Part shown: piece after piece, positions 2,137 to 21,975 of the stretch
Layout: every line of letters starts with the position of its first letter
Numbering within the stretch: the first letter of the stretch is position 1
Virus record (IMG/VR): IMGVR_UViG_3300020530_000006
Strand: one strand, 5' to 3'
Origin: a virus
Length of the DNA: 64,000 bases
The notes under the pieces: generated by a model
Databases searched by the model: none
Told to the model about the DNA's origin: nothing
The model's input: the letters and a program-made list of their open reading frames with translations, nothing else
Translations under genes and position numbers: made by a program

Positions 2137-2348
2137 GAGATTGGATAGTTGATTTAGTTTATCTAGCACTTATTATTGTTAGTTTTGCTGTTTGTTACCA
2201 TAGATTGTCCGTTTTGTCTCACCGAATTGATATGGTCATAATGGTTCAGCAATCTCAAGAAGAATCATTTCGTCGCTCTCTTGAAAGGGATGCTGATCTA
2301 CTTTTAAAGTTAGGCAAGATAGAACAACTATTGGGGGAAAATAAATGA
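2133..2348 (+). CDS. Hypothetical membrane protein (paralog of 6171..6329)
   Basis: N-terminal TM then SHRIDMVIMV. Confidence 0.7.
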   Translation: MRDWIVDLVYLALIIVSFAVCYHRLSVLSHRIDMVIMVQQSQEESFRRSLERDADLLLKLGKIEQLLGENK

Positions 2349-2542
2349 AATATACTAATCCTTATAGTTGTGATTATCTAAAATTCTTTATTGAGAAAAG
2401 AGAAAATCCAATTAATCAAAAAACTAAGGATTATGTTGTTGCTTTTCATGGTAAAAACGGATACTTTGAAGAACCAGTATTGTCTAGGGAAGAACTAAAG
2501 GGGTTGGCCGATTTTATTTACAAAACCATTGGAGAAAAATAA
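2345..2542 (+). CDS. Hypothetical protein
   Basis: Ends SREELKGLADFIYKTIGEK. Confidence 0.7.
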   Translation: MKYTNPYSCDYLKFFIEKRENPINQKTKDYVVAFHGKNGYFEEPVLSREELKGLADFIYKTIGEK

Positions 2543-2745
2543 TGAAAACTAAATTTCCACAAGAATTATATGATTTACTTAATCTTCAATTTCATGCTGC
2601 AACCACTAGCAATAGTTGTAAAATACTGCCTACATTCGATAAGGACAAAGAAGGAGATCTATCAATAAGTATATGTTTTAACGAAATCTCAATAATCCTA
2701 AATGATAACGGAACATGGTATTATTCAAAACCAACCAATAATTGA
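2542..2745 (+). CDS. Hypothetical protein
   Basis: Tiled ORF with GGAG RBS. Confidence 0.6.
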   Translation: MKTKFPQELYDLLNLQFHAATTSNSCKILPTFDKDKEGDLSISICFNEISIILNDNGTWYYSKPTNN

Positions 2746-2772
2746 TAATTTTACACTTATAGGAGAAAAGAA

Positions 2773-3195
2773 ATGAACAGAAGAAGTCTTATTAAATCTT
2801 TGTTACAAATAACGGCTGGGTTTTTACTTTTTAAGAACGTATATGGTGAGCATGAATCATACCTTTACAAAGGTAAAAAACTTATTGTTGTACCATCAGA
2901 TACTCTTTATAATATCTGTCAGAAGAAAAAAGAACCGAGGTTTCTTCCTAAATTTCAATCTAATGATAGTATCATAGACGAAATGAAAATCTTTGTTGAT
3001 ATGTGCAAAGAGTATAACATGAAACTTGGATATGAAGTATATGGTTGCGTTCATAAAGACGGAAATTATTCTGTAATTTCATTCAGCGATCCATATATTT
3101 GTGCAACATATCCATGTACTACAGGCGTTAAGAACAATAGAATTGCTAAATTATTTAAGATAACTAATGAAAACTCACACTTGTTCAATAGATAG
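2773..3195 (+). CDS. Hypothetical protein with Tat-like signal peptide
   Basis: MNRRSLIKS plus a hydrophobic stretch; AGGAG RBS. Confidence 0.65.
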   Translation: MNRRSLIKSLLQITAGFLLFKNVYGEHESYLYKGKKLIVVPSDTLYNICQKKKEPRFLPKFQSNDSIIDEMKIFVDMCKEYNMKLGYEVYGCVHKDGNYSVISFSDPYICATYPCTTGVKNNRIAKLFKITNENSHLFNR

Positions 3196-3207
3196 GATTT
3201 TTACACA

Positions 3208-3417
3208 ATGAATAATCCAACATTATCAGACGATATTCTTTACGCCATTAGTTGTGTTCAAGACTATAGGGCTACTATAGATACTGATTGTGAAGTTGGT
3301 GGTCATGTTTATGACACTATTAGTCATCGAATTGACCGATTAATGGATTTTTATTATATGTTAACAGGATTTAATCCACATAATATTAGACAAATTAATT
3401 TAAATGAAATTGACTAA
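3208..3417 (+). CDS. Hypothetical protein (paralog of 3424..3678)
   Basis: ISCVQDYR..RIDRL shared motif. Confidence 0.7.
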   Translation: MNNPTLSDDILYAISCVQDYRATIDTDCEVGGHVYDTISHRIDRLMDFYYMLTGFNPHNIRQINLNEID

Positions 3418-3423
3418 AGTCTT

Positions 3424-3678
3424 ATGAAACTCTCCAAAGAAGAAATAGATAGCCTAATTGTTAATGATATTCTTATTGGTAATCATTTTAAGGTGGGATA
3501 TTTAGAACTATATCCAGAACTATCAAATGATATTGCATTAGGAATCTCTTGTATGCAAGATTATAGAGATACTATTGATTCTTGGGAGAATCAAGAAGAC
3601 TGGGACAAAGTTAGCATAAGAATTGATAGACTATTACAATTTTATCACAAGATATGGGAAATAAGTCATAGAACTTGA
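3424..3678 (+). CDS. Hypothetical protein (paralog of 3208..3417)
   Basis: ISCMQDYR..RIDRL shared motif. Confidence 0.7.
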   Translation: MKLSKEEIDSLIVNDILIGNHFKVGYLELYPELSNDIALGISCMQDYRDTIDSWENQEDWDKVSIRIDRLLQFYHKIWEISHRT

Positions 3679-4144: not shown

Positions 4145-4543
4145 ATGACTGGTTTAAATATTCAGATTCCTTGGTCGTTTCTTTTAATTAATGGCGACAA
4201 AAGCGTTGAAACACGCTCGTATCCGCTCCCTAAAAAGTATGAGGGAGTCGAACTAGCATTAATTGAAACGCCGGGCAAATACGGTCGATTTAAATCTCAT
4301 ATTATTGGTACAATAACCTTTAGCCATAGTTTTCAATATCCAGATAAGCAATCTTGGGTAGATGACTATAATAGACACAAAGTAGAAGAACTTGATGAAT
4401 TTTTGGGTTGGAATCCAGACAAACCTAAATACGGATGGGTAGTTAGCGATATTAAAAAATTCGACCACCATATTCCAGCCCCAAAGAAAAAGGGGATAGT
4501 GTTCACAAAAAACTGCAAAGTTCATGTTGACAGTTGTCGATAG
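4145..4543 (+). CDS. ASCH domain protein
   Basis: LNIQIPWSFLLINGDKSVETRS matches the ASCH GxKxxExR motif. Confidence 0.8.
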   Translation: MTGLNIQIPWSFLLINGDKSVETRSYPLPKKYEGVELALIETPGKYGRFKSHIIGTITFSHSFQYPDKQSWVDDYNRHKVEELDEFLGWNPDKPKYGWVVSDIKKFDHHIPAPKKKGIVFTKNCKVHVDSCR

Positions 4544-6329: not shown

Positions 6330-6586
6330 GTTGGAACTATCGTGTCGTTAAAAAAGTTAATAAAATACCTATTCTCTTAAAAAAGAATAATCCTGATCTG
6401 GGCGATTTTGATGTTTTTTATGAAATTCATGATGTATACCTTGATGAAAGTCTAGATATTGTAAATATTGGAAGAATATCATTTCCTATGGGCGATGATG
6501 TTGAGTCATTACAATGGAGTCTAGAAAGAATGATGGAGGCTTGTAGTAAGCCGGTTATTGACTATAATACAGGAGAAGAAATATAA
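6326..6586 (+). CDS. Conserved phage hypothetical protein
   Basis: MSWNYRVV..YEIHDVY. Confidence 0.7.
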   Translation: MSWNYRVVKKVNKIPILLKKNNPDLGDFDVFYEIHDVYLDESLDIVNIGRISFPMGDDVESLQWSLERMMEACSKPVIDYNTGEEI

Positions 6587-6600
6587 GATCGGAATTAACC

Positions 6601-6709
6601 GACGCCGCTGGGTTGATCGCCAGAAGGCAACGTCCTGTGCCTCTAGTTCCCGTATGATCCTGCTATATGCTGGTTCGCTAGGGTTCTAACGCACGATAAT
6701 GGGGGCGTT
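6601..6709 (+). ncRNA. Candidate multi-stem RNA domain
   Basis: GC-rich intergenic island; closing GACGCC/GGCGTT; hairpins CTGG/CCAG, AGGCA/TGCCT, CTAG/CTAG, CGTATG/TATATG with G-U pairs. Confidence 0.55.
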
Positions 6710-6722
6710 TTCAATACAACAA

Positions 6723-6852
6723 ACATGGTAAGACAAGGAAAAGGAGAATGGGATTTGACTGATATGAGAAAATAAAGCCTAGATCTGGAATAGTGGTCTT
6801 TGATATCGGTGTTATTTTCAGAGTATTGGTAATGATACCTCACCTGCCATGT
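6723..6852 (+). ncRNA. Unassigned structured RNA motif, copy A
   Basis: Closing stem ACATGGTA/TGCCATGT; two conserved blocks shared with 9272-9370. Confidence 0.65.
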
Positions 6853-7154
6853 CACAAAACATTACGGATAATTTTGATTGGGATTCTTGGATAAAAGAAG
6901 CGACAAGGTATAAACCCTGTGCCTCTTTATGTATTGATAAAGAGTCTGATAGAGTAGAATTATTGCTTGATACTAATACTTTTACTTACAATGAATGGAT
7001 AAAGGGAGAAGGTGCTGATATTAGTTTGGTTAGGTGCAGCAAAACCAACAAGGTTATTGGGATTAATCTTCCCTTATATCAAACAGATTTTAGCATATGG
7101 CATACTAATGGCATAAGAGTTAGAATAAATCAAGGATATTTAAAAAATGAATAA
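6849..7154 (+). CDS. Hypothetical protein
   Basis: 101-aa ORF; its ATG lies inside the copy A closing stem. Confidence 0.65.
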   Translation: MSQNITDNFDWDSWIKEATRYKPCASLCIDKESDRVELLLDTNTFTYNEWIKGEGADISLVRCSKTNKVIGINLPLYQTDFSIWHTNGIRVRINQGYLKNE

Positions 7155-7554
7155 AGATATTGCTAAAAAGTGGGTCAAGGCTTTGCGTAGTGGAAAATAT
7201 AAGCAAGGATATGGCTATCTAAAACAATTGAATAGCAAGAATCAGCCAAGACATTGTTGTTTGGGTGTTCTTTGTGAACTTTATAACGACACTATGAAAA
7301 AGAATCATAAAAAAACTCTTTACATAGAGGACATGGAAGATTCTGACGGTACGTATTTCATTAGATTCAATTTATTAGATGGCGGTCTACCCATTGTAGT
7401 GCAAAAATGGGCTGGCATTAAAAATATTATAGGAGAATTTGCCGTTGCACCGTATGGCAGATACGATGTTGAATGTCTTGCTGATCTAAACGATGGTGGT
7501 AAAAAATTCTCAACTATTGCTGATATTATCGAAAAGAATGTAGAGAATCTATGA
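7147..7554 (+). CDS. Conserved phage hypothetical protein
   Basis: KWVKALRSGKYKQG..HCCLGVLCEL..LNDGG..FSTIADIIE. Confidence 0.75.
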   Translation: MNKDIAKKWVKALRSGKYKQGYGYLKQLNSKNQPRHCCLGVLCELYNDTMKKNHKKTLYIEDMEDSDGTYFIRFNLLDGGLPIVVQKWAGIKNIIGEFAVAPYGRYDVECLADLNDGGKKFSTIADIIEKNVENL

Positions 7555-7618
7555 AGGAGCCATTAATTTATTATGAAATTAAAACAACTATACTAGAAGG
7601 TATTGGTGAAATACTAGT

Positions 7619-7843
7619 ATGAATACTCTAGACTTCATAGGACTCTTCTTATTAAGCATGGCTTTAGCCTGTGTAATATCTATTGTTTGTTCTCTAGGTA
7701 TAACAGCACTCTTACTTCATATTGTTCATGCTTTTGATTTAAATCCTGGTCGTGATAATTATTGGGTATTTAATGTGACCATAATTTCACTAATAGTTAG
7801 TTGGATTATTAGTTTCGGTTGCTTTATGAGTATTAATAAATGA
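7619..7843 (+). CDS. Hypothetical membrane protein
   Basis: Two TM segments. Confidence 0.6.
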   Translation: MNTLDFIGLFLLSMALACVISIVCSLGITALLLHIVHAFDLNPGRDNYWVFNVTIISLIVSWIISFGCFMSINK

Positions 7844-8082
7844 ATATACTAAGTACAAAACATACTTATGATAACAGAATATTAACTCTGATAATTGATT
7901 ATAAAGGTAGATTATTTAGAATCAATAATGTATCGCCAGCGGGGTTATATATTTGGTCAGGAATTAATGGGTGGTTGTTTATTGAACTTGGCGAGTATGC
8001 AAAAACAGAACAAGAAATTATCAATCAGTTTATTAAACTTATGGATGCTTATACTAATGAAGAAGAAAAAGAAACAAAATAA
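7840..8082 (+). CDS. Hypothetical protein
   Basis: Tiled ORF. Confidence 0.55.
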   Translation: MNILSTKHTYDNRILTLIIDYKGRLFRINNVSPAGLYIWSGINGWLFIELGEYAKTEQEIINQFIKLMDAYTNEEEKETK

Positions 8083-8260
8083 ACGTAAACAAAAAATTGA
8101 TGTTGTAATAGAGTCATTAGTTCATCTTGAACAAAGAATGAAGGAACTAATAACTAAAGTAGAAAGTTTGCATACACAAAGATATTATCATCCACAAAAT
8201 GCTGAACCAAAAAAATATTGGCCGGTTGATTATCCAAAATATAAAGATGTAACTTGGTAG
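8057..8260 (+). CDS. Hypothetical protein
   Basis: Tiled ORF; internal ATG chosen as start. Confidence 0.5.
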   Translation: MKKKKKQNKRKQKIDVVIESLVHLEQRMKELITKVESLHTQRYYHPQNAEPKKYWPVDYPKYKDVTW

Positions 8261-8520
8261 ATAGTATGAGCAAAAGTTTACTTTCTCAACAAGATCAGTT
8301 AACAAACTTAAAACTTCAATACGGACTTAGTTTAAATTTTGTGGAAGTTACAATTCCTCTTACAGAAAATGAGATGATTGATATTTGGGGAGAAAATTGT
8401 GACGAATACGAACACAGTTGCTCATTATGTAGAGCGTGGCATGAGTGGAATACTAATTATCATAAGGTAACGGTAGTCGTATCAAGAGATAGTATTGTTA
8501 AAGCGGCAAAGAAAGATTAA
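8254..8520 (+). CDS. Hypothetical protein
   Basis: Tiled ORF, C..CSLC motif. Confidence 0.55.
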   Translation: MVDSMSKSLLSQQDQLTNLKLQYGLSLNFVEVTIPLTENEMIDIWGENCDEYEHSCSLCRAWHEWNTNYHKVTVVVSRDSIVKAAKKD

Positions 8521-8522
8521 AT

Positions 8523-8846
8523 ATGAAAAATAAAATAGGCTCATTTGCAATTTGCAATAATAACCAATTAGGTTTAATACTATACGAAACACAAGTTCTT
8601 GTAAAGAGAACAAACAAATCACATACTTTGTATCATGGAATTTGTTTAAGTCCACAAGAAAAGTACGGATGCAATTGGCAAAGTAAAAATCCTAAATTTT
8701 TAAACAAAAATCAATTTCAAAAATTGTGGAAAAAATTAGCATATGATAGGTTGTTAGGTGAGGTTAAAAACAATGGTTTTGTAGAGGCTTTAAAAAGATA
8801 TAAGCTAATAAAAGATAAAGAAATTAATGAGGTTTTAAAAAAATGA
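8523..8846 (+). CDS. Hypothetical protein
   Basis: Tiled ORF. Confidence 0.6.
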   Translation: MKNKIGSFAICNNNQLGLILYETQVLVKRTNKSHTLYHGICLSPQEKYGCNWQSKNPKFLNKNQFQKLWKKLAYDRLLGEVKNNGFVEALKRYKLIKDKEINEVLKK

Positions 8847-9058
8847 ATTTTATATCAACATTTATTAAAAGCTTTACAGTATCTGTAGTATTTTTTGTGT
8901 TATTTGTTTCAAATATAGGCCCAATACTTGCTAAAAATTTTAATTGGCATGGAGATGATCCTAGTACTTTATTTGGGCCAGAATGGATTTGGAATTATGG
9001 TTTTATCATAGCATTAGTTTCTTTCTTCGTTTCAGCATTGTTGTTCGAAAGGACATAA
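8843..9058 (+). CDS. Hypothetical membrane protein
   Basis: Two TM segments. Confidence 0.6.
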   Translation: MNFISTFIKSFTVSVVFFVLFVSNIGPILAKNFNWHGDDPSTLFGPEWIWNYGFIIALVSFFVSALLFERT

Positions 9059-9061
9059 AAA

Positions 9062-9268
9062 ATGATTGATTTAAAGTGGTTTCATCCGTTTAATTTCTTG
9101 TTTTATAAAAGACCAAGAATGGATACACATTGGCATCCATCAGACGATCTTTGTCAATATGGTTTTAGTCTCGACCTTACCACCGAAATGTATTATTATA
9201 CATATGATTGGGGCCATGGTTTTAATTTCAGAATACTTGGATTTGGGATTGGAATAACAAGAGTGTAG
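9062..9268 (+). CDS. Hypothetical protein
   Basis: Tiled ORF with AGGA RBS. Confidence 0.55.
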   Translation: MIDLKWFHPFNFLFYKRPRMDTHWHPSDDLCQYGFSLDLTTEMYYYTYDWGHGFNFRILGFGIGITRV

Positions 9269-9271
9269 GTA

Positions 9272-9370
9272 ATATAATCCTACTAGGTAAGGAAAGCAAA
9301 AGGAGCATGGGAACTGTAGATACGTCACAGAAACGAACAGAGATACCGCACCTGCCTATTAGGATTGTAT
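9272..9370 (+). ncRNA. Unassigned structured RNA motif, copy B
   Basis: ~20-bp closing stem with G-U pairs, inner CTGT-A-GA-TACG-TC-ACAG hairpin, conserved blocks shared with 6723-6852. Confidence 0.65.
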
Positions 9371-9371
9371 C

Positions 9372-9581
9372 ATGAGTAAAACTATTAAAGAAAAATTTGA
9401 AACTTTTTTAGATACAGTAGATTGGAGTAGCCCAAAACTTTCTAGAAAAAAAGAATATCTACTCTACAAAATTAAAAACGCACAAAACGATGAAGAATTA
9501 TTAGATATAATGTGTGGAGTATTTTATCACGGCCATCAAGCATCTATAGTAAACTATTGGTGGTATATAGACAATGATTGA
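9372..9581 (+). CDS. Hypothetical protein
   Basis: Its AGGA RBS lies inside the copy B closing stem. Confidence 0.6.
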   Translation: MSKTIKEKFETFLDTVDWSSPKLSRKKEYLLYKIKNAQNDEELLDIMCGVFYHGHQASIVNYWWYIDND

Positions 9582-9680
9582 TAAGTACTTACATACCAAA
9601 TCAGATAGATCAAATAATTGAGATAGAACCAGAGGGTACACAAATGACATATAAACAATTTATCAAAAGGATATTAAATA

Positions 9681-10073
9681 ATGTATTATGAACTAATTCA
9701 AATAAACGATGAACTAAGATACACTATTGACAATCTGAAAAAACAATTAGCAGAATACGAAAAATGTACAGCACGAGTTTATGCTCCAGGTAAAAGTTAT
9801 AAAGAATTAGAAGAAAAATTAGCAAACTTTGAAGAAGAAAAGCAGAACGAAATTAATAGACTAATAGATACTATGGCTCAAGCAAATAAAGAAATACAAT
9901 CTCTTAGCCAAACAAATTATAATCTTAAGTCTACTAATATAAATCTAGAACAAACTATTGAACAACAAAATGTGGTCATAACTCTTGCTGCTGGTTATAT
10001 TAGTACCTCTAAAAGATTCAGTAATACTCATCCTATAGATGTTAAAAAGTGGCTAACTGGAGGTATGGAATGA
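9681..10073 (+). CDS. Coiled-coil hypothetical protein
   Basis: E/K/Q/L heptads. Confidence 0.65.
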   Translation: MYYELIQINDELRYTIDNLKKQLAEYEKCTARVYAPGKSYKELEEKLANFEEEKQNEINRLIDTMAQANKEIQSLSQTNYNLKSTNINLEQTIEQQNVVITLAAGYISTSKRFSNTHPIDVKKWLTGGME

Positions 10074-20602: not shown

Positions 20603-20747
20603 TAGAATAATCAGGATTAAAGAAGATATTTGGGAAGCAAGAGAATATATAAATTCAGATTATTGTAAGAAATGTTCAGAAATATATTCTCAAATACTCA
20701 GACTTGAACAAGAATTAGAAGGTCTACAAAGAAAACTTACGCAATGA
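20562..20747 (+). CDS. Hypothetical protein
   Basis: Coiled coil with CKKC. Confidence 0.5.
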   Translation: MTNPNENEREKILDRIIRIKEDIWEAREYINSDYCKKCSEIYSQILRLEQELEGLQRKLTQ

Positions 20748-21289
20748 ATGTTCTTGATGGTTTGAAAGATTTGAGCGTTCCAGATATTGCCAAGTATTGT
20801 CAGGATAAAAGTATCCCTGCTAGTGTTGCTATGATTAACATTGGTGGAGATTTTAATCTTAGCACAATGGTTCGCAATGCTAATTTTTTTGGATTTCGTA
20901 GTATCCATTATGTGGGTAAAAAGAAGTGGGATAAAAGAGGAAGCGTAGGCACTCATCACTACACTCCAATGTACTATCATAAAACAGAAGAAGATTTTAT
21001 CAAATCACATTCATCGAGTGGTCGCACACTAATTGCTATTGAAAATAATATTCCAGAATACAAAGATATGACATTCGATCCTTTTAGTTTTGACTTCTCT
21101 AATGTTGATGAGCCAATTTTTATTTTCGGAGAAGAAAATGCTGGTTTGTCAGAAAAGATTCTTATGGCCTGTAGTTGTGTCTTAACTATTCCTACTTATG
21201 GAAGCGTTAGGTCTTTAAATGTTGGAACAACTAGTGGCATCATTATGAGTTTTTATCGCCACTATTACGAAAAATTTCTCAAGGGTTGA
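20744..21289 (+). CDS. SpoU/TrmH-family RNA 2'-O-methyltransferase
   Basis: NLSTMVRNA, FIFGEENAGL, IP..GSVRSLNV SPOUT motifs. Confidence 0.9.
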   Translation: MNVLDGLKDLSVPDIAKYCQDKSIPASVAMINIGGDFNLSTMVRNANFFGFRSIHYVGKKKWDKRGSVGTHHYTPMYYHKTEEDFIKSHSSSGRTLIAIENNIPEYKDMTFDPFSFDFSNVDEPIFIFGEENAGLSEKILMACSCVLTIPTYGSVRSLNVGTTSGIIMSFYRHYYEKFLKG

Positions 21290-21314: not shown

Positions 21315-21324
21315 ACAAAAACAT

Positions 21325-21398
21325 GGGGCGTTGCAGCCGGTAGTTGCACATACTCTTATAAGGTATTCAAAAGGTAGGTTCGACTCCTACACGCCCTA
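21325..21398 (+). tRNA. tRNA-Ile (anticodon TAT)
   Basis: Acceptor GGGGCGT/ACGCCCT plus A; loop CT-TAT-AA (21357-21359); T-arm GTAGG-TTCGACT-CCTAC; atypical D-arm. Confidence 0.8.
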
Positions 21399-21414
21399 TT
21401 AGGAAGGTTTAGAT

Positions 21415-21666
21415 ATGACAAATAAATCAAAACATATGCCATATTACATAATCCTATGTGGATTTTTAGGTATGTCCATTGGCTTTAATTTTGTTCAACA
21501 TGAAGAAATTAAATTGCTCAAACAAGAAAAGACTATGTATAGGGTATTTTTTGAGTATCTCTATCTTAAACTAGAGACTTTACAAAACAAGAATTTTGTG
21601 TATAATAATGATACCTTGGGGGCGAAATGTATCGATTGGATTGATTTGAGTAAAACTAGCAAGTAG
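21415..21666 (+). CDS. Hypothetical membrane protein; 3' end overlaps the tmRNA
   Basis: AGGAAGG RBS, one TM. Confidence 0.55.
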   Translation: MTNKSKHMPYYIILCGFLGMSIGFNFVQHEEIKLLKQEKTMYRVFFEYLYLKLETLQNKNFVYNNDTLGAKCIDWIDLSKTSK

Positions 21667-21969
21667 TGGTTGGTGGAAAGGCCACTTTAAAAATCTACCA
21701 AATGCTTTAACTGGCAATAATCAGTTAGCCCTTGCTGCTTAATTAAATAACAGCAACAATCTTAGAAAGCGATGAAGGTAGCGTTCAAAAGATTGATGTA
21801 AAATCCTTCGGCTGCTAGAATAACCAACGGGTTCTAGCCTGAGATTAGTTGGTACGGAAAGATGAATGTTGTTTGTTCTTTAATCTTTCTCAAAACTTAT
21901 GAACAAAATAAACTTGTAGAGGTTTTATAAAAATGATCACAAGACGGCGAGTCGAATCGCCCGCCTCCA
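21618..21969 (+). ncRNA. ssrA: tmRNA; tag (A)GNNQLALAA
   Basis: Acceptor GGGGGCG/CGCCTCC-A with G3:U70; TAACT before the resume codon; tag ORF 21713-21742 ending ALAA; about 352 nt. Confidence 0.9.
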
Positions 21970-21975
21970 CTTAAT

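Follow-up and report, generated by a model that had tools for sequence, protein, structure and literature searches.

We analysed two short segments of a 64,000-nucleotide (nt) stretch of viral DNA, IMG/VR record IMGVR_UViG_3300020530_000006; the window denotes this whole stretch throughout. Both segments, denoted as copy A (6723-6852) and copy B (9272-9370), are copies of one small RNA fold family, which is restricted to large phages and almost absent from bacterial genomes. We describe here the family, its fold, its restriction to phages and the range of genomic contexts in which it occurs, and then consider what such an RNA may do. The parts of the two copies and the open reading frames (ORFs) that follow them are listed below.

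6723-6852, plus strand: copy A of the RNA motif (model R1, 52 bits, E-value 4e-11).
6723-6729 with 6846-6852, plus strand: closing stem (P1) of copy A, from the minimum-energy fold and the covariation model.
6730-6741, plus strand: purine bulge of copy A.
6742-6747 with 6840-6845, plus strand: inner helix of copy A, with the mismatch A6745.A6842.
6748-6749, plus strand: AU bulge of copy A, followed by GG (6750-6751) paired with CC (6838-6839).
6754-6833, plus strand: apical rod of copy A, long.
6849-7154, plus strand: ORF of 101 amino acids (aa), from the ORF list; its ATG lies within the 3' strand of the copy A P1.
9272-9370, plus strand: copy B of the RNA motif (model R1, 71 bits, E-value 5e-16).
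9272-9288 with 9354-9370, plus strand: extended P1 of copy B, from minimum-energy folds.
9289-9300, plus strand: purine bulge of copy B.
9301-9306 with 9348-9353, plus strand: inner helix of copy B, with the mismatch A9304.A9350.
9307-9308, plus strand: AU bulge of copy B, followed by GG (9309-9310) paired with CC (9346-9347).
9313-9341, plus strand: apical hairpin of copy B.
9372-9581, plus strand: ORF of 69 aa that follows copy B; the AGGA of this ORF (9361-9364) is part of the P1 3' strand.

Model R1, which was built from other phages, matched exactly copies A and B when applied to the 64-kb window, and the minimum-energy fold of copy A has the same pairing as the covariation model. An earlier reading of this DNA, made from the letters alone and referred to as the sequence-only reading, had described a 5' block and a 3' block common to the two segments. 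We searched the window for both. A pattern of 27 positions for the 5' block (23 of them specified) occurs only at 6727-6753 and 9286-9312, with zero occurrences expected in shuffles. For the 3' block, of which 0.11 occurrences were expected, the only sites are 6834-6848 and 9342-9356. Recounting the identities between the copies gave the same values as before, 25/31 for the 5' block and 14/15 for the 3' block. That the closing stems take in the start signals of the following genes was also reproduced by the minimum-energy folds: the stem ACAUGGU/GCCAUGU of copy A includes the ATG at 6849-6851, and the stem of copy B, of about 17 base pairs (9272-9288/9354-9370), includes the AGGA at 9361-9364. 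One detail had to be corrected. The pair proposed as compensatory, G6738/C9297 with U6840/G9348, is paired in just 41% of 98 homologues. U6840/G9348 in fact pairs with A6747/C9306, which gives A-U in one copy versus C-G in the other and is paired in 98% of the same homologues.

There is no Shine-Dalgarno sequence between copy A and the ATG of ORF 6849-7154, and a search of the PHROG families gave no match for this ORF or for ORF 9372-9581. A promoter-like site lies before copy B at 9249-9278, but such sites are not above chance in this A+T-rich DNA (19 sites versus 19.4 expected).

Fold and covariation

We built a covariance model from 20 short members of the family and a hand-drawn structure and then used it to align 98 distinct members. 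In the resulting fold, P1 consists of variable flanks and GGU/GCC, and is followed by a one-sided, purine-rich bulge of 12 nt, A-AGrnAAGnAAA. The inner helix of 6 base pairs, [A/C]GGAGN / N'CACC[U/G], contains an invariant A.A mismatch. Past this helix are a two-base AU bulge, an invariant GG paired with the CC of (GA)UACC, and an apical hairpin that can be of any size, the insert being 6 to 79 nt long in the aligned set. Core length in the recovered copies ranges from 48 to 133 nt, and the shortest member (L154, 48 nt) has essentially no apical hairpin.

Standard pairs make up 94.8% of the cells of the 98 sequences, a share that falls to 73.6% on shuffling and to 34-48% if the partners are displaced by 1-3 columns, and the covariation score is 0.445 versus 0.110 in shuffles. 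The sequence-only reading had proposed that a covariance model be built and phage metagenomes be searched; homologues were found by pattern scans of viral contigs. Among them, compensatory changes back P1 as well as three inner-helix pairs and the apical hairpin at its base. Four pairs of P1 and both pairs at the apical hairpin base covary freely. The N-N' pair is A-U in 45 sequences, C-G in 39 and G-C in 12, and the inner-helix base pair is A-U in 51 and C-G in 37. Covariation of the latter is not an artefact of the search pattern, because the scans fixed only one of its sides. Furthermore, all 11 natural variants having GGAA for GGAG have U for C at the opposite position, where the pattern had left the partner free. 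Two scans gave no variants of the invariant GG, so the GG/CC pairing is one that we infer and to which covariation cannot speak. Mutual information over the core columns gave no Watson-Crick partners and no pseudoknot beyond the modelled pairs. Across phages of distant hosts, about 30 nucleotides are near-invariant while the helices covary.

Positions A14, C26 and U137 (alignment A4) show weak covariation as a triple. Such non-Watson-Crick covariations point to either a base triple or a non-canonical pair where P1 meets the inner helix. The combination C14, C26 and C137 is found in 6 distinct sequences of the same alignment, and a class having A13 with A138 (GGAAAGG...CACCGACC) is seen at many loci, the Vibrio phage discussed below included.

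Size and distribution of the family

All counts of family members given here are lower bounds, as the search patterns fix much of the core. In the first scan, 17 bases of the 5' block were specified and IMG/VR viral contigs were searched; this resulted in at least 117 loci, and at least 83 of these have the 3' block 13-94 nt downstream. The remaining 34 loci, in which the leading GGTAAG is missing, match by chance or as coding sequence. Variant scans with AAAC for AAAA, with a base other than U in CACCNGCC, and with GGAA for GGAG resulted in 84, 48 and 11 further loci, respectively. One relaxed expression matched at least 171 viral loci, corresponding to at least 116 distinct sequences.

Among cultured phages, blastn of the motif found only Ralstonia phage RSP15, whose copy at 92104-92194 of LC121084, on the minus strand, sits inside the phage tRNA cluster, and Vibrio phage 1.121.O, whose copy at 140567-140656 of MG592495 sits in an unannotated gap of 1.4 kb. 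This gene-free gap (positions 2155-3534 of locus L240, corresponding to MG592495 140231-141610) may hold further RNA genes besides the motif. The window region itself had no blastn match in cultured phages, and the nearest genome record (G001) carries no copy of the motif. We also searched bacteria and archaea, using one genome for each of 185,579 species. A gapped pattern of 21 bases occurred at 6 places, of which 2 are true members, both on small contigs of metagenome-assembled genomes; the other 4 places, three in Streptomyces and one on a contig of a Chlorobiaceae metagenome-assembled genome, were rejected as chance matches. The motif search of plasmids was without any match.

The whole records giving a match (n=8) are 146-368 kb long and have 8 matches in all, one record having two; this count leaves out two close relatives of copy A, which the model scores at 53 bits. 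Phage genomes carry 1-2 copies each. Among the hosts are Ralstonia, Enterovibrio and, judging from the cyanophage-type genes CpeT and OprB/SLH porin that several loci carry, probably cyanobacteria.

Genomic context

ARAGORN places same-strand tRNA genes in the locus of 101 of the 171 copies and opposite-strand ones in none. For 74 copies there are tRNAs on both sides, 56 have a tRNA within 30 nt, and 78 have a same-strand tRNA within 100 nt. In these arrays the motif sits in gaps between called tRNAs. At locus L037, it occupies the 68-nt gap from tRNA-Asp to tRNA-Glu; here, and likewise in a dozen related arrays, the whole of this gap is taken up by the motif and its P1, and P1 starts at the first base after the end of the upstream tRNA.

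Other lineages show different arrangements. In the L012 lineage, P1 is preceded by a perfect TTGACA-17-TATAAT promoter, the end of which is about 6 nt away, and the motif is directly followed by another promoter, a near-perfect one. In an RSP15-like lineage of about 168 kb (L136, L138, L164 and L172), the motif comes after the stop codon of the ORF upstream and before a terminator, a long GAAA-capped hairpin followed by a T-run, about 12 nt past the motif. With a stop codon before it and a terminator after it, the motif of this lineage lies in a 3' untranslated region (UTR). The 3' arm of the terminator (L136 6835-6891, also in the other three loci) holds the TTGACA -35 box of the next promoter, the TATAGT -10 box of which is just past the T-run, so that terminator and promoter overlap; the stem of the terminator hairpin covaries between relatives. 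At L053, the motif is flanked by a 38-nt direct repeat, 95% identical (4295-4332 and 4456-4493). Both flanking ORFs are intact, because the repeat duplicates the ORF junction with its stop codon, ribosome-binding site (RBS) and start codon. The repeat looks like the footprint of a cassette-like insertion.

ORFs downstream of the motif are unrelated, and include a GIY-YIG nuclease, a gp32-like protein, a UvrD-type helicase, a DUF2201 peptidase and proteins without assignment. Clustering of the ORFs within 3 kb gave just genes of the array neighbourhood (ferritin-like, lysozyme, CpeT, porin), and no protein family was found to adjoin the motif across lineages. The sequence-only reading had seen each of the two copies as burying the start signal of the following gene. 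This holds in both lineages of the window and is confined to them; elsewhere, the RBS of the following ORF is usually outside the closing stem, mostly 20-50 nt beyond P1. The ATG abuts the motif in all 8 members of the copy A lineage, although the ORFs differ: in relatives of copy A another ORF, hydrophobic and of 49 aa, begins at the position matching the start of ORF 6849-7154. The copy B relative L011 has a long P1 with the RBS inside, as in copy B.

Several further elements were noticed around the motif. A conserved, hairpin-rich unannotated element lies about 80 nt past it at L009, L069, L098, L057, L013 and L047, and a conserved hairpin-rich unannotated element also follows it at L033, L083, L052 and L107. 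These elements occupy gaps in the tRNA arrays and are not called by ARAGORN; one of them starts with CACTGCCCTCTAATGCAGTG and another with AACACCCCTCAAGCC. At L017, L020 and L025, a hairpin having a UUGAUC loop (e.g. GGGG-AUUUGAUCA-CCCC) lies 19-23 nt upstream of the motif, and TTGATC is present within 160 nt upstream in 12 of the 98 distinct members. These hairpins may be remnants of tRNA 3' halves.

Comparison with known RNAs

Searching the whole window with Rfam 15 at gathering thresholds returned just a transfer-messenger RNA (tmRNA) and 2 tRNAs, and neither copy of the motif. Region 6400-9700 had zero matches even at E<=10, in agreement with the sequence-only reading, which had recognised no known family. 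Neither copy is called as a tRNA by ARAGORN or by the Rfam tRNA model. A full-text search for the conserved blocks gave no relevant paper, its only hits being two on globin that have no bearing on the motif, and keyword searches gave no description of the motif.

Several known elements were considered by eye and dropped, as their required positions vary or are off register in the motif: the kink-turn, the 11-nt tetraloop receptor, a mimic of the 16S 3' end or of the helix between the Shine-Dalgarno and anti-Shine-Dalgarno sequences, pairing of the bulge to the anticodon loop of tRNA-Glu or tRNA-Lys, and a put-like antitermination RNA. Pistol, hatchet and twister-sister ribozymes are scattered in phage DNA without gene association. 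The motif resembles them in size, in invariant junction nucleotides, in variable peripheral stems and in having no fixed gene association; it differs from these small ribozymes in having no Rfam match, in its long one-sided purine bulge, and in having no pseudoknot detectable by covariation. With regard to riboswitch classes, the motif has an aptamer-like conserved core with covarying stems (94.8% paired). It does not have a consistent position in the 5' UTR of related genes, its neighbours being tRNAs, unrelated ORFs and, in one lineage, an upstream ORF that places it in a 3' UTR. A candidate expression platform (a sequestered start signal, or a terminator) is seen in the two lineages of the window and possibly in the L136 lineage, and is absent elsewhere.

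The rnaC and rnaD RNAs of phage T4 (species 1 and 2) are co-processed with tRNAs, and we know of no function assigned to them. Similar to the motif, they are small non-tRNA RNAs on the tRNA strand of a T4-type tRNA cluster (NC_000866 annotation). However, they do not have either of the two conserved blocks, and when the T4 tRNA region was searched with the model and the filters disabled, the best score was 12.8 bits, at a site other than rnaC or rnaD. The two T4 RNAs are unrelated to the motif. The best counterparts in kind are GOLLD and ROOL, which are phage or prophage non-coding RNAs, often near tRNA islands, with a structure supported by covariation (PMC12286853); they are of unknown function and without a known protein partner (PMC12286853). 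GOLLD is often longer than 800 nt, and GOLLD and ROOL alike consist of several domains and form cages, whereas the motif is one bulged hairpin, an order of magnitude smaller, and without sequence or model similarity to either. In addition, a published catalogue from IMG/VR contains 8,495 unnamed candidate structured RNAs (PMC10690425), and it may list the motif already, unstudied.

Interpretation

The motif occurs in tRNA arrays, behind its own promoter and in a 3' UTR; for most members there is no downstream gene, and where an ORF follows, it is unrelated from case to case. The proposal of the sequence-only reading was a riboswitch, ribozyme or protein-binding cis element controlling phage translation. 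Its structural part, an RNA with a conserved core, variable stems and no Rfam family, was borne out, while control of the translation of the next gene is not supported as a general function. We do not take the motif for a switch dedicated to the next gene, and a cis-regulatory reading holds only locally.

The explanation that we favour, and to which we give roughly even weight, is that the motif is a self-contained small stable RNA, cut from tRNA-operon or polycistronic transcripts and acting on a partner common to very different hosts. The motif would be transcribed within tRNA operons or other polycistronic RNAs and probably be freed as a small stable RNA; within arrays, the enzymes of tRNA processing, which cut on both its flanks, would do this. 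The freed RNA would then probably act in trans through the invariant bulge and the internal loop. Its predicted partner is probably universal; candidates would be, for example, the machinery of translation or of RNA processing, or a small molecule common to all hosts. In the window, where the lengthened P1 covers the ATG at copy A and the RBS at copy B, we expect the fold to reduce initiation at the ORF that follows; this local effect should be a lineage-specific side effect.

A number of points weigh against a small stable RNA acting in trans. The copies of the window are outside tRNA arrays and overlap start signals, and an ATG directly follows the motif in 8 out of 8 members of the copy A lineage. 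Near-invariance of about 30 nt is seen in ligand-binding aptamers and catalytic cores more than in protein-binding small RNAs, and a self-cleaving ribozyme, or an aptamer acting in cis in some lineages, would fit this conservation equally well. In principle, the L136-lineage terminator past the motif could serve as the expression platform of a riboswitch, and the arrays could be merely a permissive landing place, which would account for the association with tRNAs. Finally, release, stability, trans action and partner are all points that we infer.

Among the alternatives, a similarity resulting from a coding frame, a DNA-level site or chance is practically refuted already. Although the invariant AAGGAG-N-ATG resembles an RBS and start codon, its Shine-Dalgarno-like part is just 1 nt from the ATG, and 44 of the 98 sequences have ACGGAG, with the pairing partner changed to compensate. 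Insert lengths modulo 3 are distributed 40/29/29 over the 98 sequences; inserts in all three frames mean that the conservation does not come from a coding frame, which the sequence-only reading had named as a way in which its RNA model could fail. The G.U pair U13.G138, present in 85 of the 98 sequences, is strand-specific, P1 shows compensatory changes, as do the inner helix and the apical hairpin, and zero matches to the 5' block are expected by chance. It also seems very improbable that the motif partners a Ro60/Rsr-type protein in the way of Y RNAs. Y RNAs (YrlA/YrlB), the ligands of Ro60/Rsr, are likewise small stem-bulge RNAs, and the position of the motif in tRNA arrays and its stem-plus-bulge look would agree with this. 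However, there is no Y_RNA or YrlA match at E<=10, and the TROVE domain is found in just 1 of 5 near-complete motif-bearing phage genomes. DUF2828 has no match in those 5 genomes, which is uninformative as the control genomes have none either. A cis riboswitch or protein-binding operator, in which a ligand or phage protein would stabilise P1 and thereby hide the start signal or set the terminator, is quite unlikely. In its favour are the aptamer-grade conservation, the terminator about 12 nt past the motif in the L136 lineage, and a P1 that takes in either the ATG (copy A, 7 relatives) or the AGGA (copy B, L011), similar to preQ1-II and SAM-II riboswitches in that the 3' strand of the closing helix holds a start codon or RBS. 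Unlike in these riboswitches, most members have no sequestered start signal, and the family has neither a common downstream gene class nor an Rfam match. The 78 copies within 100 nt of a same-strand tRNA gene have no ORF to control, the RBS is 20-50 nt beyond P1 in other lineages, and the downstream genes do not have a common function. The gene following the motif in the L136 lineage is served by a separate promoter, located within or past the terminator, and we found no anti-terminator pairing by eye.

A new class of small self-cleaving ribozyme, which would cut polycistronic phage transcripts (tRNA precursors or mRNAs) wherever it is inserted, we consider unlikely. Size and conservation are ribozyme-like, with invariant junction nucleotides around short helices; the placement is independent of context and always on the strand of the neighbours, and P1 in the arrays starts straight after the final base of the upstream tRNA. 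On the other hand, the motif has no similarity to any Rfam ribozyme model at E<=10, no candidate cleavage site can be named, and there are no permuted forms among the 59 matches to the 5' block that have no 3' block downstream. Moreover, a genome usually has one copy (8 matches in 8 whole records) and not one per junction. In a wider form, the motif would be a new catalytic or ligand-binding RNA class that is free-standing in large phages, i.e. either a ribozyme that processes tRNA operons or an aptamer without a platform. This we regard as a tentative possibility. A platform-less aptamer would target a universal metabolite, a signalling nucleotide, or the ribosome directly, and one form of it would be an RNA counterpart of protein 'sponges'.

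Conservation of this degree is normally seen in aptamers, catalytic cores or ribosome-binding RNAs, and the near-invariance of the motif spans phages of Betaproteobacteria, Gammaproteobacteria and probably cyanobacteria. An RNA class of large phages that is absent from Rfam and tied to tRNA clusters would be the third orphan beside GOLLD and ROOL, and by far the smallest and most tractable of the three. It bears on what the tRNA islands of phages do besides supplying tRNAs. As two cultured phages carry the motif, its ends, its partners and the phenotype of its deletion are directly testable.

Upstream segment and other features of the window

Copy A is preceded by the following features.

6563-6568, plus strand: TATAAT box, invariant in 8 relatives (alignment A5), about 160 nt upstream of copy A.
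6587-6722, plus strand: G+C-rich conserved structured segment with a fold energy of -43 kcal/mol.
6608-6623, plus strand: T-arm-like hairpin CUGG-GUUGAUCG-CCAG, the stem of which has compensatory changes in alignment A5.

Segment 6587-6722 is called neither by Rfam nor by ARAGORN, and may be a second unassigned RNA or a degenerate piece of a tRNA. Copy A, too, looks like part of an RNA unit. Judging from its resemblance to the consensus, the TATAAT box is a candidate promoter element for a unit comprising segment 6587-6722 and copy A.

The phage of the window is large and low in G+C (about 32%), and its annotated large ORFs are all on the plus strand. Close relatives have complete genomes of 224-231 kb. 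Genes in the window include RIIA, DNA ligase, ThyX, a SpoU methylase, RuvB, the actin-like volactin, the tmRNA and three tRNAs. The tmRNA at 21618-21972 is an Rfam match (81 bits) that ARAGORN does not call; it adjoins tRNA-Ile(TAT) at 21324-21399 and the gene of the SpoU-type RNA methylase at 20744-21289. An 84-nt tRNA-Ser at 584-667 has the anticodon ACT according to ARAGORN, an unusual A34 anticodon.

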